Positions 32,967 through 41,605 of a DNA stretch of 47,021 nt are shown here, one piece after another. Made by a program: the position numbers and the translations under genes. The DNA is from Escherichia phage ChristineMuster_Bas80. How positions within the stretch are numbered: the first letter of the stretch is position 1; each line of letters opens with the position of its first letter. Below the pieces are notes generated by a model that was given only the letters and a program-made list of their open reading frames with translations, was not told the origin of the DNA and searched no databases. The stretch is taken from sequence record PQ850597.1; one strand, written 5' to 3'.

Positions 32967-34874
32967 ATGACTACCACACCAACTAATAAACCAATTCCGT
33001 CTGAAGACCCGCGCGACCTGAAATTTAATGCCGGGAAAATCGACGAAGTTGTTAACTCTGATGCGCATTACTACACCGATCGTTTCGGCATTCGCCGGTT
33101 TACTATCGCCGGTTTCCAATATACAGCAGAAGAAGCTATCCGTAATTATGGCTATATCACGATGGACAGTTTTGAGGATGGGGCGACACTGACGTTGCCT
33201 AATCAGGTTCTGCGCTATGAGGCTACTGGCGAATATTACCGCTGGGACGGTGAATTTCCTAAAACTGTTTCTGCCGGCTCAACACCTGAAGCATCTGGTG
33301 GTGTTGGTATTGGTGCATGGGTTAGTGTTGGTGATGCTTCATTGCGCAGTGATTTGGCCCTAAGCACTGGCGCAGGGTTAGTTGGGACAACATCCGGCAG
33401 GACCGTACAGGCAGAGTTTGACCATTTCAAAATAGGGTATATGACACCCGATGATTTCGGCGCGGTAGGTGATGGTGCCACCGACGACACCACGCCTTTG
33501 CAACAGGCTATTGACTATTGTTCAAGCAACGGTATCGCGTTAAGAATCCCCGCAAAATCTTATGTTTGGAATGGCGGTATTATAACTTCACCCATAACAA
33601 TAATCGGTGACAGACGTCCAGATTACAATTTTAGCTCCAATTCTATGTCTAACGGGTCTGTCATAATTGGCAATTTAAGATTTTCCGCAAGCCAGGTGAT
33701 TATTAAGTCACTTGGTGTGCGTAGGCCTACAGGCTCCCCCGGAGATTGTCTGGTGTTATCGACCGATAACTATGCTGGTGGGTCTTGTATTGTTCAAGAT
33801 GTAGTTGCCGCGGGCCTTTCCGGTTCGGACACGTACCACAGCGTTCTTGTTGAAGGCTACGATTCCGCGCATGTATCTCAAATAACTGGCGGTTATAATC
33901 TTTTTGGCCTCGCGATTAAGTCAAGAAACGTTGTTGCCAGAGGCGTAATAACCGTAAGCTGTGATACTGGCGTTATCATTAAATCTGATAGTGAGTTCAG
34001 CACGGCAAAAAATGTGGTGCTGGACGGGCACATTAATGTCGGTAATGGTGTTTCTAGTCAAGGTGTTTGGATTTACAGCACAACCGCACAACTTGAGCGT
34101 ATTACCTGCGCAAACTTACAAAGCATCGATTCCGCTATACATATGCGGATTAAGTCCGAAAACGTAGCTAATGACGTGCAAATTGTTGGGGCAAATTATT
34201 CAGGATCTACTTATGCGGATGTGCTCGTCGAAGGCACTTCGGCTGGCACGTTGTACAATGTTAGTTTAGATAGTATAACCGCAGTAAATAGCCAGAAATT
34301 TATGGCTGCAGGTTTCTGTGAACAACTGATGGTAACAGGATTCTATGGGTCCCTGAAACCTGGCGCTCCCGCCGATACTGCGTTTGAGGTTAGCTCCGCC
34401 GTAGGGCTTTTTAGCGTGTCAAATATCCAACTAGTCCGTCAATACAGCAGTGACCTAATGACAATGAATCTCGGTAACAGTTATCTTAATAATAGATTAT
34501 CATCTGTTAAGGCGAAAGTAATAGGAAACGGCAAACCTAGGCCGGGGTATAAAGAACAGAATATTAGCGGCGCTGCGGCTACAATGATTGTTGGCGACAG
34601 TTTGGGGCCCTCTGGGGTTGTGTCTGTCACCGCGATATCCGCCGGCAGTTCATTCAGCAGTATTGCTATTAATGACGACTATGGTCAGCCGGTTAAGCCA
34701 GGTTTTCTTCTAATAATCCGAAACGCATCCGCTATCTCGTTCGTTATGAACCATAATCCAGGGCCTGGTGGAATCGCAAATAACGGGGAGGTTGGTAAGA
34801 CCATTGCGGGCGGAGACACTATAATGTACGTTTTTGACGGGGCGAATTGGCGTCAAACTCCATCTATAGCTTAA
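32967..34874 (+). CDS. Tailspike / tail fibre with pectate-lyase-like beta-helix (putative depolymerase)
   Basis: Motif DFGAVGDGATDDTTPLQQAIDY typical of pectate-lyase-3-type beta-helix proteins; 635 aa; last structural gene. Confidence 0.65.
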   Translation: MTTTPTNKPIPSEDPRDLKFNAGKIDEVVNSDAHYYTDRFGIRRFTIAGFQYTAEEAIRNYGYITMDSFEDGATLTLPNQVLRYEATGEYYRWDGEFPKTVSAGSTPEASGGVGIGAWVSVGDASLRSDLALSTGAGLVGTTSGRTVQAEFDHFKIGYMTPDDFGAVGDGATDDTTPLQQAIDYCSSNGIALRIPAKSYVWNGGIITSPITIIGDRRPDYNFSSNSMSNGSVIIGNLRFSASQVIIKSLGVRRPTGSPGDCLVLSTDNYAGGSCIVQDVVAAGLSGSDTYHSVLVEGYDSAHVSQITGGYNLFGLAIKSRNVVARGVITVSCDTGVIIKSDSEFSTAKNVVLDGHINVGNGVSSQGVWIYSTTAQLERITCANLQSIDSAIHMRIKSENVANDVQIVGANYSGSTYADVLVEGTSAGTLYNVSLDSITAVNSQKFMAAGFCEQLMVTGFYGSLKPGAPADTAFEVSSAVGLFSVSNIQLVRQYSSDLMTMNLGNSYLNNRLSSVKAKVIGNGKPRPGYKEQNISGAAATMIVGDSLGPSGVVSVTAISAGSSFSSIAINDDYGQPVKPGFLLIIRNASAISFVMNHNPGPGGIANNGEVGKTIAGGDTIMYVFDGANWRQTPSIA

Positions 34875-34880
34875 AACTAA

Positions 34881-34902
34881 GGCCCCGAAAGGGGCATTTT
34901 AT
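34881..34902. terminator. Rho-independent terminator (bidirectional candidate)
   Basis: gcccc-gaaa-ggggc hairpin with T-rich flank between convergent genes. Confidence 0.6.
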
Positions 34903-34915
34903 CTTTGGTCACCAT

Positions 34916-35401
34916 TTAGAAGGGTATTGAATCATCGAAGTCTATCGGATGCTCATTGCCTCCTTGTATGCTTTGTTGTTTTTGCTGTTGTTGTTGCTGT
35001 TGCGATTGTTGGCCTGATTGCTGTCGTGGTTGCTGCTGACTGGAATCATCACGTTTACCACCAAGCATCTGCATAACGCCGCCCACCTGTGGAATAACAA
35101 TCTCAGTGGTGTATCGGTCTACGCCATTGCTGTCAGTCCACTTACGAGTGCGTAGCTGACCTTCGATATAAACCTGCGATCCTTTGCGAAGGTATTCTCC
35201 TGCAACTTCTGCAAGTTTCCCGAAGATGACAACGCGATGCCATTCAGTTTGCTCTTTCTTTTCTCCTGTTTGCTTGTCCTTCCACTGTTCAGATGTTGCA
35301 ACAGAAAGATTGGCAATTGCAGAGCCTGATGCTGAATATTTAACTTCAGGGTCGTTGCCGAGAGTGCCGACAATAATTACTTTATTTACGCCGCGTGCCA
35401 T
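34916..35401 (-). CDS. ssb: Single-stranded DNA-binding protein
   Basis: OB-fold-like N-terminus ([18 protein letters not shown]...[12 protein letters not shown]), Gln-rich linker and acidic C-terminal tail DFDDSIPF. Confidence 0.9.
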
Positions 35402-35404
35402 TTA

Positions 35405-36448
35405 TTAAAATCCTTCAATTGGAGTTGGTTTGTGTTCTGTTTTTTCTTCCTGCGGTTCTGGCTGCTGTGGTTGCGGTTTAGCCAGTTTTGCAGGATTGAA
35501 ATTATCCTGCGGAGTTATTACCACAGGAGATAATTGCTCATCATTGATAAAAGACTCAATGCGATCATATTCAGCGGCAGAAGCAGCCAGAGAAGGCCAG
35601 ATTGCGCGAATTTTATCTTTCAGGTTATCAGGTATTGATTTTGCTTCTTCCTTCAGGCCTTCCATGCCTTTTGCTGCAGAAAGCTGAAGTCTTGAGCGCC
35701 ATGACTCAAACTCTTCGTCAACTTTAACGCCAGAGTCAACCCATTTGATGAGTCCGCGACCATGCGCCTCTCCAATATATCCATGGCGAACACTTTCACG
35801 ACCAGACTCAAAGAATATTGGGCGTAGTTCTTCTGGTAATTTTGTGAACTCCTGAATTTTGCCTCCATCGTGCATCATCATGCTCACGGTCATCTCGAAC
35901 ATGAAATCTTTCTCGCACACTGGTTGCAACCCAAGTGATACAGGTTCCTTCGGGTTTGCGAAATCAGTTTTCTGACGTGCGCGAAGGCAGACAATGATAT
36001 GCATATTGCTTTGTAGCATGGCATTCATGAACTTCTTGTGTTCAGCTTTGGCGCGCTTCCAGTCAGCCATCTTTTTACCGTTAAGCAGCGGCTTTTCAGC
36101 AATCTCCGTGCAACTGCCTTCACCTTCCCATTCATGCGAACCTGAATCAATAACAAGAACCTTAACGCCGGCAGCCTGAAACTCTTCAATGGCCTGACGG
36201 TAACGGGCCGGGCTGAATGGAGCATACATATCAGCGTGCAGGAATTTGCCATCAAGGATGTTTGAGTACAGGCGACCGCGACCGTTTTCAGTATCAAGGA
36301 ATCCGATTTCTTCTGGTGAATCAACCATCCCGCGAGCCAGCTTAAGTGCGCTATATGTTTTGCCGCTACCTGACTGGCCTGAAATGCCGATGACCACGCG
36401 AGAACCTGAACGCTCTGCTGGTTTAATATTGAGAATACCCATTTTCAT
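35405..36448 (-). CDS. RecA-like P-loop ATPase (AAA_24/Sak4-like recombination protein candidate)
   Basis: Walker A GQSGSGKT and Walker-B-like VLVIDS; sits between ssb and exonuclease genes. Confidence 0.5.
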   Translation of the reverse strand: MKMGILNIKPAERSGSRVVIGISGQSGSGKTYSALKLARGMVDSPEEIGFLDTENGRGRLYSNILDGKFLHADMYAPFSPARYRQAIEEFQAAGVKVLVIDSGSHEWEGEGSCTEIAEKPLLNGKKMADWKRAKAEHKKFMNAMLQSNMHIIVCLRARQKTDFANPKEPVSLGLQPVCEKDFMFEMTVSMMMHDGGKIQEFTKLPEELRPIFFESGRESVRHGYIGEAHGRGLIKWVDSGVKVDEEFESWRSRLQLSAAKGMEGLKEEAKSIPDNLKDKIRAIWPSLAASAAEYDRIESFINDEQLSPVVITPQDNFNPAKLAKPQPQQPEPQEEKTEHKPTPIEGF

Positions 36449-36459
36449 CACCTCACTAA

Positions 36460-37398
36460 TTATAAATTAAACTGTTTTTTGAACCATTCAGGCGTTTCCA
36501 TTTCTATGACAGGATTACCCATTGAATAACCGGGCCACGAATTGGCTTTTTTGCACGCCTTGTAAATTTCCATAGCGCCATGCAACTGAATTCGACCGAT
36601 GCGTAATTGCTCTTCAGTCAAGCGAATTAACGCAGGAATAAATGGTGCTTTCTTTTCCTGAACGAGAAGATTAACAGAGCGTGGCGCATGACCATATGCC
36701 GCAACAAACATGTCGTGCTGCATCGCCATTTTCATAAAGTACCCAAGTCTCGCAGCATGACGGAAAAACTCTTCTGGCTTGGCGCTCACCGCTGTTTTGT
36801 AGTCGATGATGTCGCCACCTTTGGTAAGGCAGTCAAAGCGAACTTTTGCCTTCTCTCCGTTAAGTTCACCTAGAATTGACACTTCAGCATAAGCACCAGC
36901 GAGAAGACTGCTGTAATAGCTGTTTGCGTGGATTACAGCACGCATTTGCTGAATAGCGTCATAATCACCACCTTCCAGCATTTGCTTTCCTACAGCAGCT
37001 TTTTCAGCCTCTTCACGGATGACATCGTAAATTTTCACTGGCTCGCCAGTCGCCTGGATGATTTTGATCACCTCAGCTTTCGACTTTCCTGAAAGTCCTT
37101 TGATGCCTCGTTCTTTTGCCCATGAGTTCATATCACTTACAGTAACAAGCAGGTCATCACCAAAATCTTCTTTGGTTGGCATTCGTGCATATTCAGCATC
37201 AAAACGCTCTGGTTCAAGCAACGCAGTATGGCTACCTGTACCGAATATAAGAGCTTTTGATTGCTCATCCTCTTCGTCTTTGTATCGCCATGCTGCTGGG
37301 CATCTGTCATATATGTTCCACAAGCCAGAGCCATTAATATGCTCTGTGTCTGCGTGGTAATCTTCATTACTGAGTTCATTATTGAAATAGACTTTCAT
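36460..37398 (-). CDS. PD-(D/E)XK-type exonuclease (putative)
   Basis: ATG at 37398 with GAGG RBS; D...D.K-like motif (FDCLTKGGDIIDYKTA). Confidence 0.45.
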   Translation of the reverse strand: MKVYFNNELSNEDYHADTEHINGSGLWNIYDRCPAAWRYKDEEDEQSKALIFGTGSHTALLEPERFDAEYARMPTKEDFGDDLLVTVSDMNSWAKERGIKGLSGKSKAEVIKIIQATGEPVKIYDVIREEAEKAAVGKQMLEGGDYDAIQQMRAVIHANSYYSSLLAGAYAEVSILGELNGEKAKVRFDCLTKGGDIIDYKTAVSAKPEEFFRHAARLGYFMKMAMQHDMFVAAYGHAPRSVNLLVQEKKAPFIPALIRLTEEQLRIGRIQLHGAMEIYKACKKANSWPGYSMGNPVIEMETPEWFKKQFNL

Positions 37399-37427
37399 TG
37401 TTAACCTCACTCATCATCACGTAAATG

Positions 37428-37456
37428 AATCTACATCAATCCACATCGAAAGGCAA
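37428..37456 (-). promoter_or_regulatory. Putative internal promoter TTGCCT-17-TAGATT (minus strand)
   Basis: Reverse complement of 37428-37433 is TAGATT with ATCTACATCA motif at 37429-37438; lies within the 3' end of the VRR-NUC gene. Confidence 0.4.
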
Positions 37457-37891
37457 GCCAAAATAGGTCAACACTGCAATCTTTATCTGGTCGAGTCCAC
37501 ACGCCACCGCAGAGAATGCACCAGCGCTGGCGCTATCGTTGAGAAACGGTATCTGTCCTGGTTGCCATTTGCTAAGCGTTGAATCATGGCGCTTCAACTC
37601 TATCGTCGCTTTATGCCACTTCACACCAGGCGTCAGGATTATCACATCAGACACCCCTGACCTGACACCTTTCCTTGCGCGCGATGACAGATGCTGCACT
37701 GAGTTGCTTTTAGTCTCCTGAGATGGATGGAACCACAGCACATCAGGAAACCGATAATCCATCCACCACTTAAACGCTATCAAGTCTGAATCCTCATGCG
37801 GACACTCGCCACGGTAACCTTCATCAAAAATTAATACCTTGTCACTCAGCTCATGCTGCTTGAATCGCTTTTTCACTATTCTCTCCTGCAA
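37436..37891 (-). CDS. VRR-NUC domain nuclease (putative)
   Basis: GVSDVIILTPGVKWHKATIELKR matches the D...E.K core pattern of VRR-NUC proteins. Confidence 0.5.
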   Translation of the reverse strand: MQERIVKKRFKQHELSDKVLIFDEGYRGECPHEDSDLIAFKWWMDYRFPDVLWFHPSQETKSNSVQHLSSRARKGVRSGVSDVIILTPGVKWHKATIELKRHDSTLSKWQPGQIPFLNDSASAGAFSAVACGLDQIKIAVLTYFGLPFDVD

Positions 37892-39797
37892 AATCTTTTC
37901 TATGGATTATGTCGCGACCTTTATCATTAATGCGATGAGTGATGCGTTTTGGCGCTTTAATCAATCCAGCATACATCATGAACTGCTTAGCATTCTGGCA
38001 TTTCAGGATTTTCCCCGCCATTGACTTATCATCAAGGTGAGGAAAAATAGCCTTTGCCTTGAACATGTTTTTCATGTGAGTCGCACCGCCATATGGGTAG
38101 AAAACTTCGTTAGCCCAGCCTTCTTTGCCATCACAACGATTAATCCAGTAGCGATACAAAATACCTTCTCCATCCTTTGTTAGCTGGACTTTGAAATCAA
38201 TAACATCAGCCCACTCATTATCGGTATACGCACGCTCATTCAGCGCCGCATTCGGGTCGCGCAACACGTGATCGCAATGTCGGCAATAACGCGCCGTCGG
38301 GTCATTTTTAGTCCCGCAGCCATCATCAAAAATACGGATTCCGTGCTTATCAAAACCGCAACGGATGTAACTGAAAAACTCTTCGCAACGACCATCTGGA
38401 GATAGTGGGTCTTTTCCTATGCAACGGCGCGCATATGGGCTGTTCATTGTTCCGCACTTAGGACACGGAACCTGTTCACCACTGCGTTTTGAACGTTGTG
38501 CTTCAGCCTCTTCCAGAATCGGGTCTTCATACAGTTGACCAAGCTCAAACATCGTTCCTGAGAAATCAAGGACCAGATGGTCTTCTTTATGATACCCGGC
38601 GTCAATTTGCTCTTTCTTCAGCAGGCGCATACCGCGACCAAGCAACTGAACAAGAAGGGTGAGTGACATTATTTTTCGTAATATCACGCTTGTATCCCAA
38701 AGCGGGATATTGACGCCAGTCGTCAAACAACCAATCTGGAAAACATATTTAATCTTGCCAGTGTATGCGTCTTTTAACGCCTTGCGTCTGGCTTTCTGTC
38801 CCATATCCTCGGTGACGATAGCGTAACTTCCTTCGGGTAAATATTTAGATGCCTCCTGACAGTGTTTTTTACCTGCGCATGTAATTAGTACGCCATTTCT
38901 GTTTTTTGTCAGCTCCATAACCTTGAGCATGATTTTCTGCGTGAGTGTCCCTTGCTCAAGTATTTCTTTCTGCATCTGCTTGAGTTGCTCGGCAGTAAAG
39001 TCTTGTGTACCGTCAACATCTGAACCATGGAAGTTATGCAGGTCATATTTCAAATCATCAACATCATGAAGACCAAAGATTGTTGGCACAACAAAACCGC
39101 GATCTACCATGTACTTTGTATCAATGTTTATTATTTCATTTTTCCAGTACGCACCTTTCATTGATTCAGTACCACGGAATGGGCTGCCGGTGAATCCAAT
39201 TGTTATCATTTCATGCCCATATCTTGCCTTGCAGCGCCTATTAAGTTCAGTAAGTATTGCGCCATATTGTGTTGTTGGATTATCACTAATAATATCCTGC
39301 CATGGAGCTTGATGGGACTCATCGATCAGGCAAAATCTTGGGGTAAAATCACTCAATCCACCTTTCTTAACGTCACCGTTTGATTCATCTTTTTTATCAA
39401 AAAGTGCGTTCGCGATTGTTCCTTCAGTACCGCATATAATAGGGTATGCTGTACTTTTCCTGCCAAGAGATGCGCTATAAAGAGAATTTTTTACACCGCA
39501 CTCCCACATCATCTCAGCATTCTGCTCAGCTATCTCCCCCTGTCTTGAAATTACAAGCCCATCCCATCCCATATCCTGAAATCTACTGCAAAGCATTGAA
39601 ATCATCACTGTCTTTCCTGATGAAACCGACGCTGTAACATAGCTTGGCTCAGGTTTCTTTCCAAAATTACGAATAACCTCAGCGCACTTTGCGTAAACAA
39701 GCCATTGGTAATCATATGGCTCTATGGAGCCTAGTTTTATTGATTTCTTTAAGTTACCTATATCAATTTCTGAAATCATCTTGTCTATTTTGTGCAT
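37851..39797 (-). CDS. Superfamily-2 DNA helicase with C-terminal zinc-ribbon
   Basis: Walker A SVSSGKT, DExH box CLIDESHQ, C-terminal CPKCG...CRHC. Confidence 0.8.
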   Translation of the reverse strand: MHKIDKMISEIDIGNLKKSIKLGSIEPYDYQWLVYAKCAEVIRNFGKKPEPSYVTASVSSGKTVMISMLCSRFQDMGWDGLVISRQGEIAEQNAEMMWECGVKNSLYSASLGRKSTAYPIICGTEGTIANALFDKKDESNGDVKKGGLSDFTPRFCLIDESHQAPWQDIISDNPTTQYGAILTELNRRCKARYGHEMITIGFTGSPFRGTESMKGAYWKNEIINIDTKYMVDRGFVVPTIFGLHDVDDLKYDLHNFHGSDVDGTQDFTAEQLKQMQKEILEQGTLTQKIMLKVMELTKNRNGVLITCAGKKHCQEASKYLPEGSYAIVTEDMGQKARRKALKDAYTGKIKYVFQIGCLTTGVNIPLWDTSVILRKIMSLTLLVQLLGRGMRLLKKEQIDAGYHKEDHLVLDFSGTMFELGQLYEDPILEEAEAQRSKRSGEQVPCPKCGTMNSPYARRCIGKDPLSPDGRCEEFFSYIRCGFDKHGIRIFDDGCGTKNDPTARYCRHCDHVLRDPNAALNERAYTDNEWADVIDFKVQLTKDGEGILYRYWINRCDGKEGWANEVFYPYGGATHMKNMFKAKAIFPHLDDKSMAGKILKCQNAKQFMMYAGLIKAPKRITHRINDKGRDIIHRKDFAGENSEKAIQAA

Positions 39798-39805
39798 TTC
39801 ATCAC

Positions 39806-40507
39806 CTATGGCATGTCAGGCCAATAAGAGTTGCTTTTAGATCTGTTTTCACTTGGTGCAAGTAATTGCAAGTTATGCCAGCAGTGAAGGCCGCAAACCA
39901 ATTTACTATTTATTGGCACTATGTGATCAACTTGCATACCAAGAACGCCAGCCATCTCATAAACCTTTTCAATTAAAACCCTTTCATGTTCAAACCATGA
40001 TGGTATCGCCCGTCTTTTAAGATACTTATATTTACGCTGATGATATCTAACAACACCCTTGTTTTTCTGTCTCCACTGTTTTGACTTCTCGTTGTGCTTT
40101 TCCTTGTTTTCATTGTAATACTTCTTTGATTTTGCGTTTATCTTGTTCTTATTTGCTGCGTAATTACCTTTCTTGAACTCTGATTGGCACTTCTTACATT
40201 CAGGCCTAAGACCATCAAGTGATGATTTGTTTTTATTGAAGTTTTCTTCATTTGCATCAAGAACTGAGTTGCATTTAGAGCATACTTTCCTTCCATCAAC
40301 AAGATATCTCAGCCTTTTACCTTTGTTTCCATCGCATGATTTACAATGAGATTTTAAACCAAGCCTCATCTTCTTATCTGAGTAGAAGTAATCACTTGTT
40401 GCAGGAAGCATTAAATTGCATCTTGAGCATTTCTTTTTTGTCCCTGTGCTTGCGCAACCTGCACTTTCCTGAGCAACATTTTGCTTTTGCAGTTCCGATA
40501 AACTCAT
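39806..40507 (-). CDS. HNH homing-endonuclease-like protein with CxxC repeats
   Basis: C-terminal VDHIVPINSK...CWHNLQLL...ENRSKSN core, preceded by CSRC...CKSC and CSKC...CKKC pairs; start at 40507 has a GAGG RBS; track start 40579 also possible. Confidence 0.55.
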   Translation of the reverse strand: MSLSELQKQNVAQESAGCASTGTKKKCSRCNLMLPATSDYFYSDKKMRLGLKSHCKSCDGNKGKRLRYLVDGRKVCSKCNSVLDANEENFNKNKSSLDGLRPECKKCQSEFKKGNYAANKNKINAKSKKYYNENKEKHNEKSKQWRQKNKGVVRYHQRKYKYLKRRAIPSWFEHERVLIEKVYEMAGVLGMQVDHIVPINSKLVCGLHCWHNLQLLAPSENRSKSNSYWPDMP

Positions 40508-40544
40508 TTCCGCAAACCTCGCACTTCTTAACGGTGATAGCCAT
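40392..40544 (-). CDS. Small Zn-ribbon ORF in alternate frame overlapping the HNH gene 5' region
   Basis: ATG at 40544 with AGAGGA RBS; product has CEVCG...CCSGKC; frames meet at an A6 run. Confidence 0.35.
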   Translation of the reverse strand: MAITVKKCEVCGNEFIGTAKAKCCSGKCRLRKHRDKKEMLKMQFNASCNK

Positions 40545-40651
40545 TTCTTGTCCTCTATTGTAACGATTAATTGTTTCATTTCAAGTAACGATTGATTGTT
40601 TCATGTGAGTAAATTACAATGATTCTACATCATCGTCAACAGGAAGATTTT

Positions 40652-41605
40652 ATGAGATACGACTGGAAAGATATTGAGCCAAAAATGCTTGGCAATTGGC
40701 AAGCTGCCATCATGTCTATCGTCAATGTGGATAGCAGAGTTTTCAATGGCAAGCACCAGCCATGCCCGTCATGCTCAGGAAAAGACAGGTATCGCTTTGA
40801 TGACAACTTCGAAACAAAAGGCGATGGCGGCGCAATCTGCAATCAGTGCGGTTCCGGCAGCGGCATGAATTGGCTGATGAAACTCTCCGGAATGAGCTTT
40901 CCTGAAGCGCTGGAGGCACTTGGTGGATTCCTGAATATGCACCCGCGTGAAAAGCTGGAGGCAATCAGGAAGGAGTTACCGAAGATAAATTACAACGATG
41001 ACTTCGTCACAGAGCAGGAAGTCGCCGCAATCATGGCTAAAACGACGCGTGTCGCGATGAATGAGTGGACTTTGATAAATGGTATTGGTTGCGACGTTAA
41101 CGTCACCAGAGGCAAATCTGGAGAACTTATTGCGGTTGAGATGATGCGAGCTGACACAATGAAACTGTGCAACGTGGCATTCATTGGCATGGATGGTGAT
41201 TCAATCAGAACGTTTTTCCGCGCAGGATACAACAAGGACTCAGCCATCAACGGCAAACTCACGCGCGGCGCGATAAGCCCAATCGGAGAAGACAACGGGA
41301 AGTTCATTTACCTGGTATCTGATTATGCCGATGCGTGGAAGTGCCATTACTTCACTGGCGCGCATGTCTGGTGCTGCTGGTCGCCGGAAAACATGTGGGA
41401 AGTGGTGCGCTCTGTTAGCAATGAGATGAAGTCACGGTTACGCTGCATAGTTAATTATAAATTTGACGAACTTTGCGCTGCGGAAAACGCAGGGATTCCG
41501 GTGATGCTTCCTGATGATGCCGACACTATCAGGATGGCAAAGAGAATCAGGAGAAAGATTTATGACGCTGGCGAGTTGATAGAAAAAATGTCAGTCAACA
41601 GATAA
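40652..41605 (+). CDS. DNA primase-like protein with N-terminal zinc-binding domain
   Basis: CPSCSGKDRYRFDD...GGAICNQCGSG pattern typical of phage/plasmid primase zinc-binding domains; AGGAAG RBS. Confidence 0.55.
   Translation: MRYDWKDIEPKMLGNWQAAIMSIVNVDSRVFNGKHQPCPSCSGKDRYRFDDNFETKGDGGAICNQCGSGSGMNWLMKLSGMSFPEALEALGGFLNMHPREKLEAIRKELPKINYNDDFVTEQEVAAIMAKTTRVAMNEWTLINGIGCDVNVTRGKSGELIAVEMMRADTMKLCNVAFIGMDGDSIRTFFRAGYNKDSAINGKLTRGAISPIGEDNGKFIYLVSDYADAWKCHYFTGAHVWCCWSPENMWEVVRSVSNEMKSRLRCIVNYKFDELCAAENAGIPVMLPDDADTIRMAKRIRRKIYDAGELIEKMSVNR

Follow-up and report, generated by a model that had tools for sequence, protein, structure and literature searches.

Which protein of the recombination cassette of Escherichia phage ChristineMuster_Bas80 pairs DNA strands, and why does it end in a short peptide that also terminates an unrelated protein in sister phages? 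The DNA analysed here (sequence record PQ850597.1; "the window" denotes the whole stretch of 47,021 nucleotides) is a Skatevirus-like siphophage genome, and its segment 34916-37891 holds four open reading frames (ORFs), each on the minus strand according to the ORF list; all window coordinates of genes and protein segments given below refer to that strand. A first-pass annotation, made from the letters of the sequence, had described this segment as a largely conventional phage recombination set, and most of the description is borne out: an SSB protein, a RecA-fold ATPase, a RecE-like exonuclease and a VRR-NUC-like gene are all present, and the module is mostly ordinary, its notable aspect being that the ATPase shares its slot with an ERF annealing protein of related phages and that the two have a common tail. 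We argue that the ATPase is probably the annealase or recombinase of a RecET/Red-type cassette, with the tail serving as a portable docking peptide.

The mechanical ORF list starts the ATPase gene at GTG 36451; because the ATG at 36442, with GAGGTG ahead of it, agrees with the family, we take the gene to be 35405-36442, encoding a proposed annealase or recombinase of 345 aa that belongs to the AAA_24 family and to PHROG 1366. The structure was modelled with AlphaFold2, using 62 homologs as input (mean predicted local distance difference test score, pLDDT, 86; predicted template modelling score 0.79). The model comprises a RecA-like α/β core (residues 17-201; 35840-36394), whose limits are also given by the invariant alignment columns and the secondary structure, a confidently folded, family-specific helical domain (residues 204-299; 35546-35833) with helices at 225-236, 243-256, 259-267 and 272-299, and a disordered C-terminal tail (residues 300-345; 35408-35545; pLDDT 48-58). 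The P-loop RecA-like ATPase of the first-pass annotation is thereby confirmed, since the Walker A motif GQSGSGKT can be read directly at residues 22-29 (36356-36379) and the protein matches PF13479 (AAA_24) over residues 19-168 with 46.8 bits, against a gathering score of 27. Among the 62 homologs, G25, G27, K28 and T29 of Walker A, D99 and S100 of Walker B, H103 and R154 are invariant, as are D50, E52 and N53 of the LDTEN sequence, which corresponds to the RecA/Rad51 catalytic-Glu motif. Outside the core fold, residues 1-13 (36404-36442) follow the near-invariant pattern M-x-I-L-N-I-R-x-A-x-R-x-G, with I6, R11 and G13 invariant; by analogy to RecA and Rad51, this segment could be a subunit-subunit polymerisation strand.

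All listed full-length homologs of the ATPase carry PF13479. When the family profile was compared with the sequences in the PDB, RecA was the sole significant match and the C-terminal domain of Red-beta was not matched; a search of the same sequences with the single protein (phmmer) returned nothing significant. The structural neighbours in BFVD are "AAA domain" proteins and "RecA-like DNA recombinase" proteins of actinophages, and a structural relative of the helical domain of about 95 residues was not found. The family is large, with at least 2,329 homologs found by database search, and the profile of PHROG 1366, annotated as "unknown function", spans residues 7-306. Nearly all of the 111 full-length homologs examined have 320-370 aa, so 345 aa is a normal length within the family (about 330-350 aa being typical) and is unusual only with respect to the characterised Sak4 proteins. 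The "long C-terminal extension" noticed earlier is therefore real, but it is not a tail alone, as it comprises the helical domain of about 95 residues followed by a tail of about 45, and it represents the family norm.

The slot occupied by this protein can be filled by a different one. In the wild-type Salmonella phage Segz_1, whose exonuclease and SSB proteins are 93.7% and 91% identical to those of the window, blastn detects homology from 37399 to 36440 and then from 35500 to 34918, with none in between. The segment 35501-36439, which encodes residues 2-314 of the ATPase, is thus swapped in sister phages for the core of an ERF protein (PF04404); the phage seszw exhibits the same replacement, with homology restarting at 35500. 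The 3' boundary of the swap coincides with the F-N-P motif F315-P317 (35492-35500), as the DNA homology to both phages restarts exactly at 35500. Because this boundary falls on the codon of F315, the ERF proteins of Segz_1 and seszw end in an ATPase-like tail, ...SFNPAKLAKPQPQ(K/Q)PEPQEETK(T/N)EHKPTPIEGF, which is essentially the tail F315-F345 of the window ATPase, FNPAKLAKPQPQQPEPQEEKTEHKPTPIEGF. Both recombinase alleles are common in GenBank: at an identity of at least 80%, the ATPase is found in 56 records and the ERF in 129, the latter count including many seszw clones. The VRR-NUC gene also circulates as two alleles, about 43-45% identical to each other (window 37436-37876; Bas79 locus, L001, 7357-7785; locus L097, 2888-3298). 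All four combinations of recombinase core and VRR-NUC allele exist (in the window and Skate, in Bas79, in seszw and in Segz_1), from which it follows that the two genes reassort freely.

An equivalent arrangement is found in the T1-like phages (Drexlerviridae). Their exonucleases are 36-41% identical to that of the window, and their genes are ordered Exo, a small ORF or HNH gene, ERF annealing protein, SSB and terminator, convergent with the tail-fibre gene, which is the layout of the window with ERF in place of the ATPase; a metagenomic phage contig carries the order helicase, VRR-NUC, DUF3799, ERF, SSB. The window cassette thus resembles the T1-like Exo-ERF-SSB block, of RecET/Red type, in its DUF3799 exonuclease, its gene order and the terminator at which this order ends, opposite a convergent tail-fibre or tailspike gene; furthermore, the ERF and the ATPase carry C-terminal tails of one kind, and helicase and VRR-NUC are present in the same genomes. 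It differs in the core of the annealase, which is an ERF/Rad52-like ring protein in the T1-like block and a RecA-fold ATPase in the window, and because of this difference annealing in the window cassette would be ATP-dependent.

The tail, which the first-pass annotation had correctly picked out as rich in Pro, Gln and Glu, is bipartite: an F-N-P motif is followed by some 25 variable residues and a terminal I-E-G-F. At least 90% of the 62 homologs share F315, P317 and F345, whereas the intervening linker is variable. Among the 111 full-length homologs, 89 end in Phe, 102 have an aromatic residue within the last three positions, and 97 exhibit an FxP motif 15-60 residues before the C-terminus; distant members from viral contigs end in ...DDDVF, ...DDDEPMF or ...GVNVF. 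In a sub-clade from Vibrio phages (P0090, P0093, P0103, P0104 and P0112; 369 aa) the FxP tail is replaced by a segment of about 50 residues (...SQLTEKEA..I..L.EI...), and an acidic tip with the terminal Phe is retained (...QGEEF, ...ADGDF). On the ERF side, the bipartite tail is present on nearly all of about 55 long relatives (216-241 aa), including the T1-like ERFs of Stevie and Phagiculus with GFNP(A/S)...SI(T/E)(D/Q)F, while ERFs of about 180-200 aa end straight after the helical region, without a tail; the one of these that was read in context lies in a lambdoid setting. The profiles of ATPase tails and ERF tails match in hhalign with a probability of 96.4% (E=1.4e-9), and the same comparison of the helical regions directly upstream of the tails gave no homology (probability 0.3%), so at the level of sequence profiles the two families share the tail and not the folded regions preceding it. 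Moreover, several lineage-specific variants of the tail (two PIEGF types, two NIENF types and an ISDF type) sit on both cores with 87-97% identity, which points to repeated core exchange or to a long-standing polymorphism.

Sharing of C-terminal parts among phage annealases has a precedent: Steczkiewicz et al. 2021 (PMC8093625) described a C-terminal module common to members of the Sak4, RecT and Erf families and attributed it to shuffling between phages of the same host. In contrast to that module and to the C-terminal domain of Red-beta, the common element in the present case is a disordered peptide of about 31 residues, and the folds upstream of it are unrelated. A disordered linker leading to an acidic tip in which the terminal Phe is obligatory is also characteristic of E. 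coli SSB (DDDIPF) and of T7 gp2.5 and gp4 (..DTDF), the terminal Phe of gp2.5 being essential; in T7, a RecA-fold ATPase (gp4) and an SSB (gp2.5) both bear acidic tails ending in Phe. Compared with these, the tip P-I-E-G-F of the window (35408-35422) is less acidic and has its hydrophobic residue at position -4 rather than -3, and the tail possesses a second anchor, FxP, about 28 residues upstream. Since these phages encode no DNA polymerase, the binding partner of the T7 tail has no counterpart here. A literature search for a described tail motif of ERF or AAA_24 proteins turned up nothing specific.

Among characterised phage recombinases, the ATPase is nearest to Sak4 (HkaL of HK620, Sak4 of phi31 and the S. 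aureus phage Sak4, PDB 8rc5), with which it shares the Pfam family, the RecA/Rad51-like core and an ssb gene directly downstream. Besides the match to PF13479, the features of the Sak4/AAA_24 group found in it include Walker A, Walker B, a catalytic Glu after strand 2, a conserved Arg in the C-terminal hairpin and a cognate ssb gene, which begins 3 nt past the ATPase stop codon. The Sak4 of HK620 anneals single-stranded DNA with the assistance of ATP and requires the C-terminal tip of the neighbouring SSB (PMC5928155). The differences are nevertheless considerable. The earlier estimate of about 100 residues beyond Sak4 was accurate, as 345 aa compare with 226 aa in HK620, 219 aa in the S. aureus phage chain and 245 aa in phi31 (PMC2896510), and unlike Sak4 the window ATPase continues beyond its core into a further helical domain, of about 95 residues, and the FxP...Phe tail, and is assigned to a separate PHROG, 1366. 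It is accompanied by a RecE-like exonuclease in a virulent siphophage, whereas Sak4 has Abc2 as partner in a temperate phage. According to Lopes et al. 2010 (PMC2896510), Sak4 proteins consist of the core only, have under 290 aa and carry no further domain, and the window protein departs from this description in length, in its folded helical domain and in its tail. Two further assignments were rejected: to RecA/UvsX (PF00154), which takes a Pfam RecA match together with a secondary DNA-binding domain, and to the helicases of DnaB/gp4 type, recognised by DnaB_C motifs, an N-terminal domain for helicase/primase interaction and a ring helicase as the best structural match.

Because the tail survives the exchange of the core for an unrelated ERF, its most likely role is to link the recombinase, of either kind, to a cassette component that stays constant, with F-x-P and the C-terminal acidic-x-Phe as putative anchors. 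We propose the following scheme for this RecET/Red-type set, which belongs to a Skatevirus-like phage without its own DNA polymerase. The RecE-like exonuclease would resect double-stranded ends to 3' single strands, which the phage SSB would cover; the ATPase, tethered by its tail, would displace SSB and anneal the strand to its complement in an ATP-dependent, Sak4-like manner; and a RadD-like helicase encoded in the same block would, together with VRR-NUC and a RusA protein encoded elsewhere, act on the resulting branched products. In the phage, the cassette would serve recombination-dependent replication, concatemer formation and repair. The gene identities, the fold, the conserved ATPase motifs, the slot shared with ERF and the common tail are direct results of the comparison, while the annealing activity and its dependence on ATP are extrapolated from Sak4 and from the equivalence with ERF, and the partner of the tail is a matter of proposal.

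The identity of the constant partner was approached by a co-occurrence scan of 78 of 80 viral loci with purpose-built hidden Markov models. With phylogeny ignored, a DUF3799 exonuclease lies upstream in 30 of the 32 loci with an aromatic tip and in 20 of the 37 without it (Fisher p=3e-4), no association is seen between the aromatic tip and a downstream SSB (p=0.47), and an FxP motif goes together with an upstream VRR-NUC in 16 of 19 loci, as against 0 of 50. The co-occurrence of the tail favours the exonuclease over SSB, and we tentatively place the exonuclease first among the candidates; the RadD-like helicase, VRR-NUC and a host SSB-client protein, taken jointly, come next as a possible group, with SSB somewhat behind that group. 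The helicase is counted among the candidates because E. coli RadD binds the SSB tip via a hydrophobic pocket with a basic rim. Two intended exclusion cases had to be dropped: Vibrio phage K207 does not exclude SSB, as an unannotated T1-type SSB is encoded elsewhere in its genome, and the T1-like phages do not exclude the helicase and VRR-NUC, as Stevie encodes both.

Several observations weigh against the proposal of a tail-docked annealase. The profile of the ATPase family aligns with HK620 Sak4 in hhalign over 16 P-loop columns only, with a probability of 10%, and the match to phrog_124 is weak (E=2.5e-9, residues 1-163). As the alignment is confined to the P-loop, close membership in the Sak4 family cannot be claimed from the sequence; of the earlier label "Sak4-type", the RecA fold of PF13479 and the Sak4 clan stand, while a closer relationship is not demonstrable. 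For PHROG 1366, a biochemically uncharacterised family, the proposed role is putative. In some family members, such as that of Serratia phage MQ-4, the exonuclease and SSB are accompanied by an ATPase that lacks the Phe tail, and in the Skate-like phages the codons of the tip overlap the ssb ribosome-binding site, which could add to their conservation in this lineage. Finally, the co-occurrence counts are uncorrected for phylogeny, and every tail-bearing genome checked has SSB, helicase, VRR-NUC and exonuclease somewhere, which leaves each of these proteins a candidate.

Of the other explanations, the one that survives best, though we regard it as unlikely, is that the ATPase acts like a Rad51 paralog, as a mediator that aids another recombinase, e.g. 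the host RecA in concert with the RadD-like helicase. The extra helical domain could serve protein interaction, and E. coli RadD is reported to speed RecA strand exchange (PMC8887467). However, the slot is otherwise held by ERF, a self-sufficient annealing protein, Sak4 as the nearest characterised phage relative anneals alone with SSB, and recombinase and VRR-NUC alleles occur in free combination. The identity of the ATPase to the eukaryotic Rad51 paralogs (RAD51D, XRCC3, RAD51C, XRCC2) amounts to 11-17%, with no common accessory domains and a different biological context.

It is still less probable that the shared tail has no function in docking and has been kept by crossovers in conserved DNA or by the ssb ribosome-binding site in its tip codons. 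The tail and ssb are indeed co-inherited as a single DNA block, and the E-G codons of the tip include the ssb ribosome-binding site GAAGGA. At 35405-35416, where this site is found within the last E-G-F codons of the ATPase gene, the double stop codon TAATAA is directly followed by the ssb ATG, an arrangement suggestive of translational coupling between the two genes. Against a purely passive origin of the tail, the terminal Phe and FxP endure even though the linker of about 25 residues diverges completely; they endure in Vibrio myophages, whose ATPase gene is not followed by another and whose SSB is encoded 25 kb away, and in T1-like ERFs with core identity below 45%; and the tips of NIENF type (aac ttt) contain no Shine-Dalgarno sequence. 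The least probable alternative, in which the ATPase is a replication protein (a small hexameric helicase of DnaB/gp4 type or a loader) and the tail couples it to SSB or the replisome like that of T7 gp4, draws on that similarly acidic tail (...DTDF), on the names "putative replicative DNA helicase" given in GenBank to some relatives (FoX5, MQ-4) and on the "DNA Replicase?" of the Skate annotators, but it is disfavoured by the lack of a DnaB-type N-terminal domain and of any Pfam helicase match, by the primase/helicase already encoded in these genomes (Skate gp64, "replicative DNA helicase" in seszw) and by the clean replacement of the ATPase at its locus by ERF, which is not a helicase, in viable wild-type phages (Segz_1), natural cases which already suggest that such a swap does not affect replication.

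The proteins with which the proposed annealase would cooperate are recognised with different degrees of confidence. The ssb gene (34916-35401) encodes a bacterial-type SSB of 161 aa related to that of E. coli (PF00436, E=8e-39, 132 bits; TIGR00621, 183.5 bits against a cutoff of 53.95; phrog_44), with the OB-fold match, a Gln-rich linker and an acidic tip DFDDSIPF. The exonuclease (36460-37398, 312 aa) has an ATG start with a GAGG ribosome-binding site and belongs to the RecE-like PD-(D/E)XK enzymes of the DUF3799 family (PF12684, 88.2 bits against a gathering score of 26; phrog_412 exonuclease VIII, E=8e-94; C-terminal region of RecE, NF007259, E=1.7e-10), and H57, E172, D189 and K201 are invariant among 8 diverse homologs.

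The VRR-NUC-like nuclease (37436-37876, 146 aa) starts with GTG preceded by AGGAGA, and its length is as annotated in Skate. It scores 23.1 bits with PF08774, slightly below the gathering score of 23.8, and its top match among PDB sequences is 4qbl, "VRR-NUC", with a weak E-value of 0.11 in an alignment that spans the motif. This motif, GVSDVII...IELK, contains the catalytic D...E-x-K as D77 and E93-x-K95, and G70, G74, D77, E93 and K95 are invariant among 4 diverged homologs; the T1-like homolog gp31 of Stevie, annotated as VRR-NUC, reads GVSDILIL...IAIELKR, and a homolog in a metagenomic contig (L014) is flagged as a weak VRR_NUC. The protein is a probable nuclease of branched DNA or Holliday junctions.

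The helicase gene (37851-39797), included in the same conserved cassette by synteny, overlaps the start of the VRR-NUC gene by 26 nt and encodes an SF2 helicase of 648 aa with C-terminal zinc ribbons. Its matches (RadD, NF053632, E=7.8e-48, 163 bits, under the equivalog cutoff of 720; PDB 6jde RadD, E=1e-25) identify it as a homolog of RadD, not an ortholog. The C-terminal third (37851-38400) contains at least two Cys-rich zinc-ribbon motifs, and residues 445-512 give weak matches to DUF7577, Zn_Ribbon_1 and DZR.

These genes form part of a minus-strand block of six, which extends from a promoter-like region at about 40.6-40.7 kb to a terminator at 34882-34895, in the order HNH endonuclease, RadD-like SF2 helicase, VRR-NUC-like nuclease, DUF3799/RecE-like exonuclease, AAA_24 ATPase and E. 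coli-type SSB. The terminator is a GC-rich bidirectional hairpin between ssb and the convergent tailspike gene, marking the operon end, and a terminator is annotated at the same spot in Skate. As with the ATPase, the starts of the exonuclease (ATG 37398) and VRR-NUC (GTG 37876) genes were adjusted relative to the mechanical ORF list, and each of the three is preceded by a Shine-Dalgarno sequence and fits the homologs. The first gene of the operon is the HNH endonuclease (39806-40579, phrog_1035). The best minus-strand promoter-like matches near the operon head are TTGCCA-16-TATCTT (40695-40668) and TTGAAA-16-TACAAT (40584-40557), the latter overlapping the first codons of the HNH ORF, whose real start may thus lie further downstream.

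The closest relative of the window, Escherichia phage SusanneMuster_Bas79, is 99.6% identical in DNA across ssb, ATPase and exonuclease, and all four genes are matched at about 90% in Salmonella phage Skate, whose genome lacks a DNA polymerase and encodes elsewhere a primase, a primase/helicase (gp64) and a RusA-like resolvase. Bas79 carries two genes more than the window: a 62-aa DUF7244 ORF between ATPase and exonuclease (L001 5538-5726), where the window has a spacer of 17 nt (36443-36459), and an HNH endonuclease between exonuclease and VRR-NUC (L001 6685-7311), where it has a spacer of 37 nt (37399-37435); in Skate, a different small ORF (gp71) lies ahead of the exonuclease. In seszw_290S (MZ375352), a laboratory genome-reduced Skatevirus clone, ssb retains only its first 9 codons and the HNH gene that precedes the helicase is missing (L011 6640-6960), with helicase, VRR-NUC, exonuclease and ERF kept, which suggests that the phage SSB is dispensable in culture. 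The same block of helicase, VRR-NUC, exonuclease and ATPase is found in Vibrio phage K207 (L012 36642-41349), a myovirus with tail sheath and baseplate, and the cassette thus crosses virion morphotypes. The ATPase tail of K207 terminates in ...EIEEF, and its T1-type SSB (...MADEDIPF; 11564-12052), labelled merely "hypothetical protein", lies 25 kb off.

One element of the first-pass annotation is not retained. The internal promoter-like sequence TTGCCT-17-TAGATT (37456 to 37428), which takes in the stop codon of VRR-NUC as well as the intergenic spacer, agrees with the consensus at 8 of 12 positions, under the threshold of the promoter scan, which for the region found 8 sites in total against 11.3 expected. 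Sites of equal quality occur at chance frequency in 34500-41500 (47, compared with 41.9 +/- 5.7 in Markov resamples), and the element is judged not to be a feature.

It is already known that annealase families can take each other's place at a given locus and that Sak4, RecT and Erf proteins have a folded C-terminal domain in common. What appears to be new in the searchable literature is a role for PHROG 1366, a helical domain without structural relative, and the retention of a short disordered tail, with codon-precise boundaries, across two unrelated recombinase folds. As the coupling of an annealase to its exonuclease and SSB limits the transfer of recombineering between hosts, this locus is of interest as a natural swap experiment, in which either of two unrelated recombinase folds can stand between one and the same exonuclease and SSB while a single short peptide is kept, and this peptide offers a mutable handle for locating the coupling interface. 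The analysis also provides a proposed function for at least 2,329 proteins whose present labels are "AAA domain protein", "unknown function" or, in error, "replicative helicase". Should the family prove active, the recombineering toolbox would gain an annealase that depends on ATP and comes with a defined adaptor. We put forward, as a possibility somewhat short of an even chance, that the tail of about 31 residues is a universal adaptor fitting ERF-ring or RecA-fold cores to one unchanging socket, provided by the exonuclease or by some other protein of the cassette, and that PHROG 1366 is a class of ATP-dependent annealases. If true, this would explain the codon-precise exchange of whole cores in T1-like and Skate-like phages and would make PHROG 1366 a large uncharacterised class of annealases, whose helical domain might add a pairing activity absent from the core-only Sak4.

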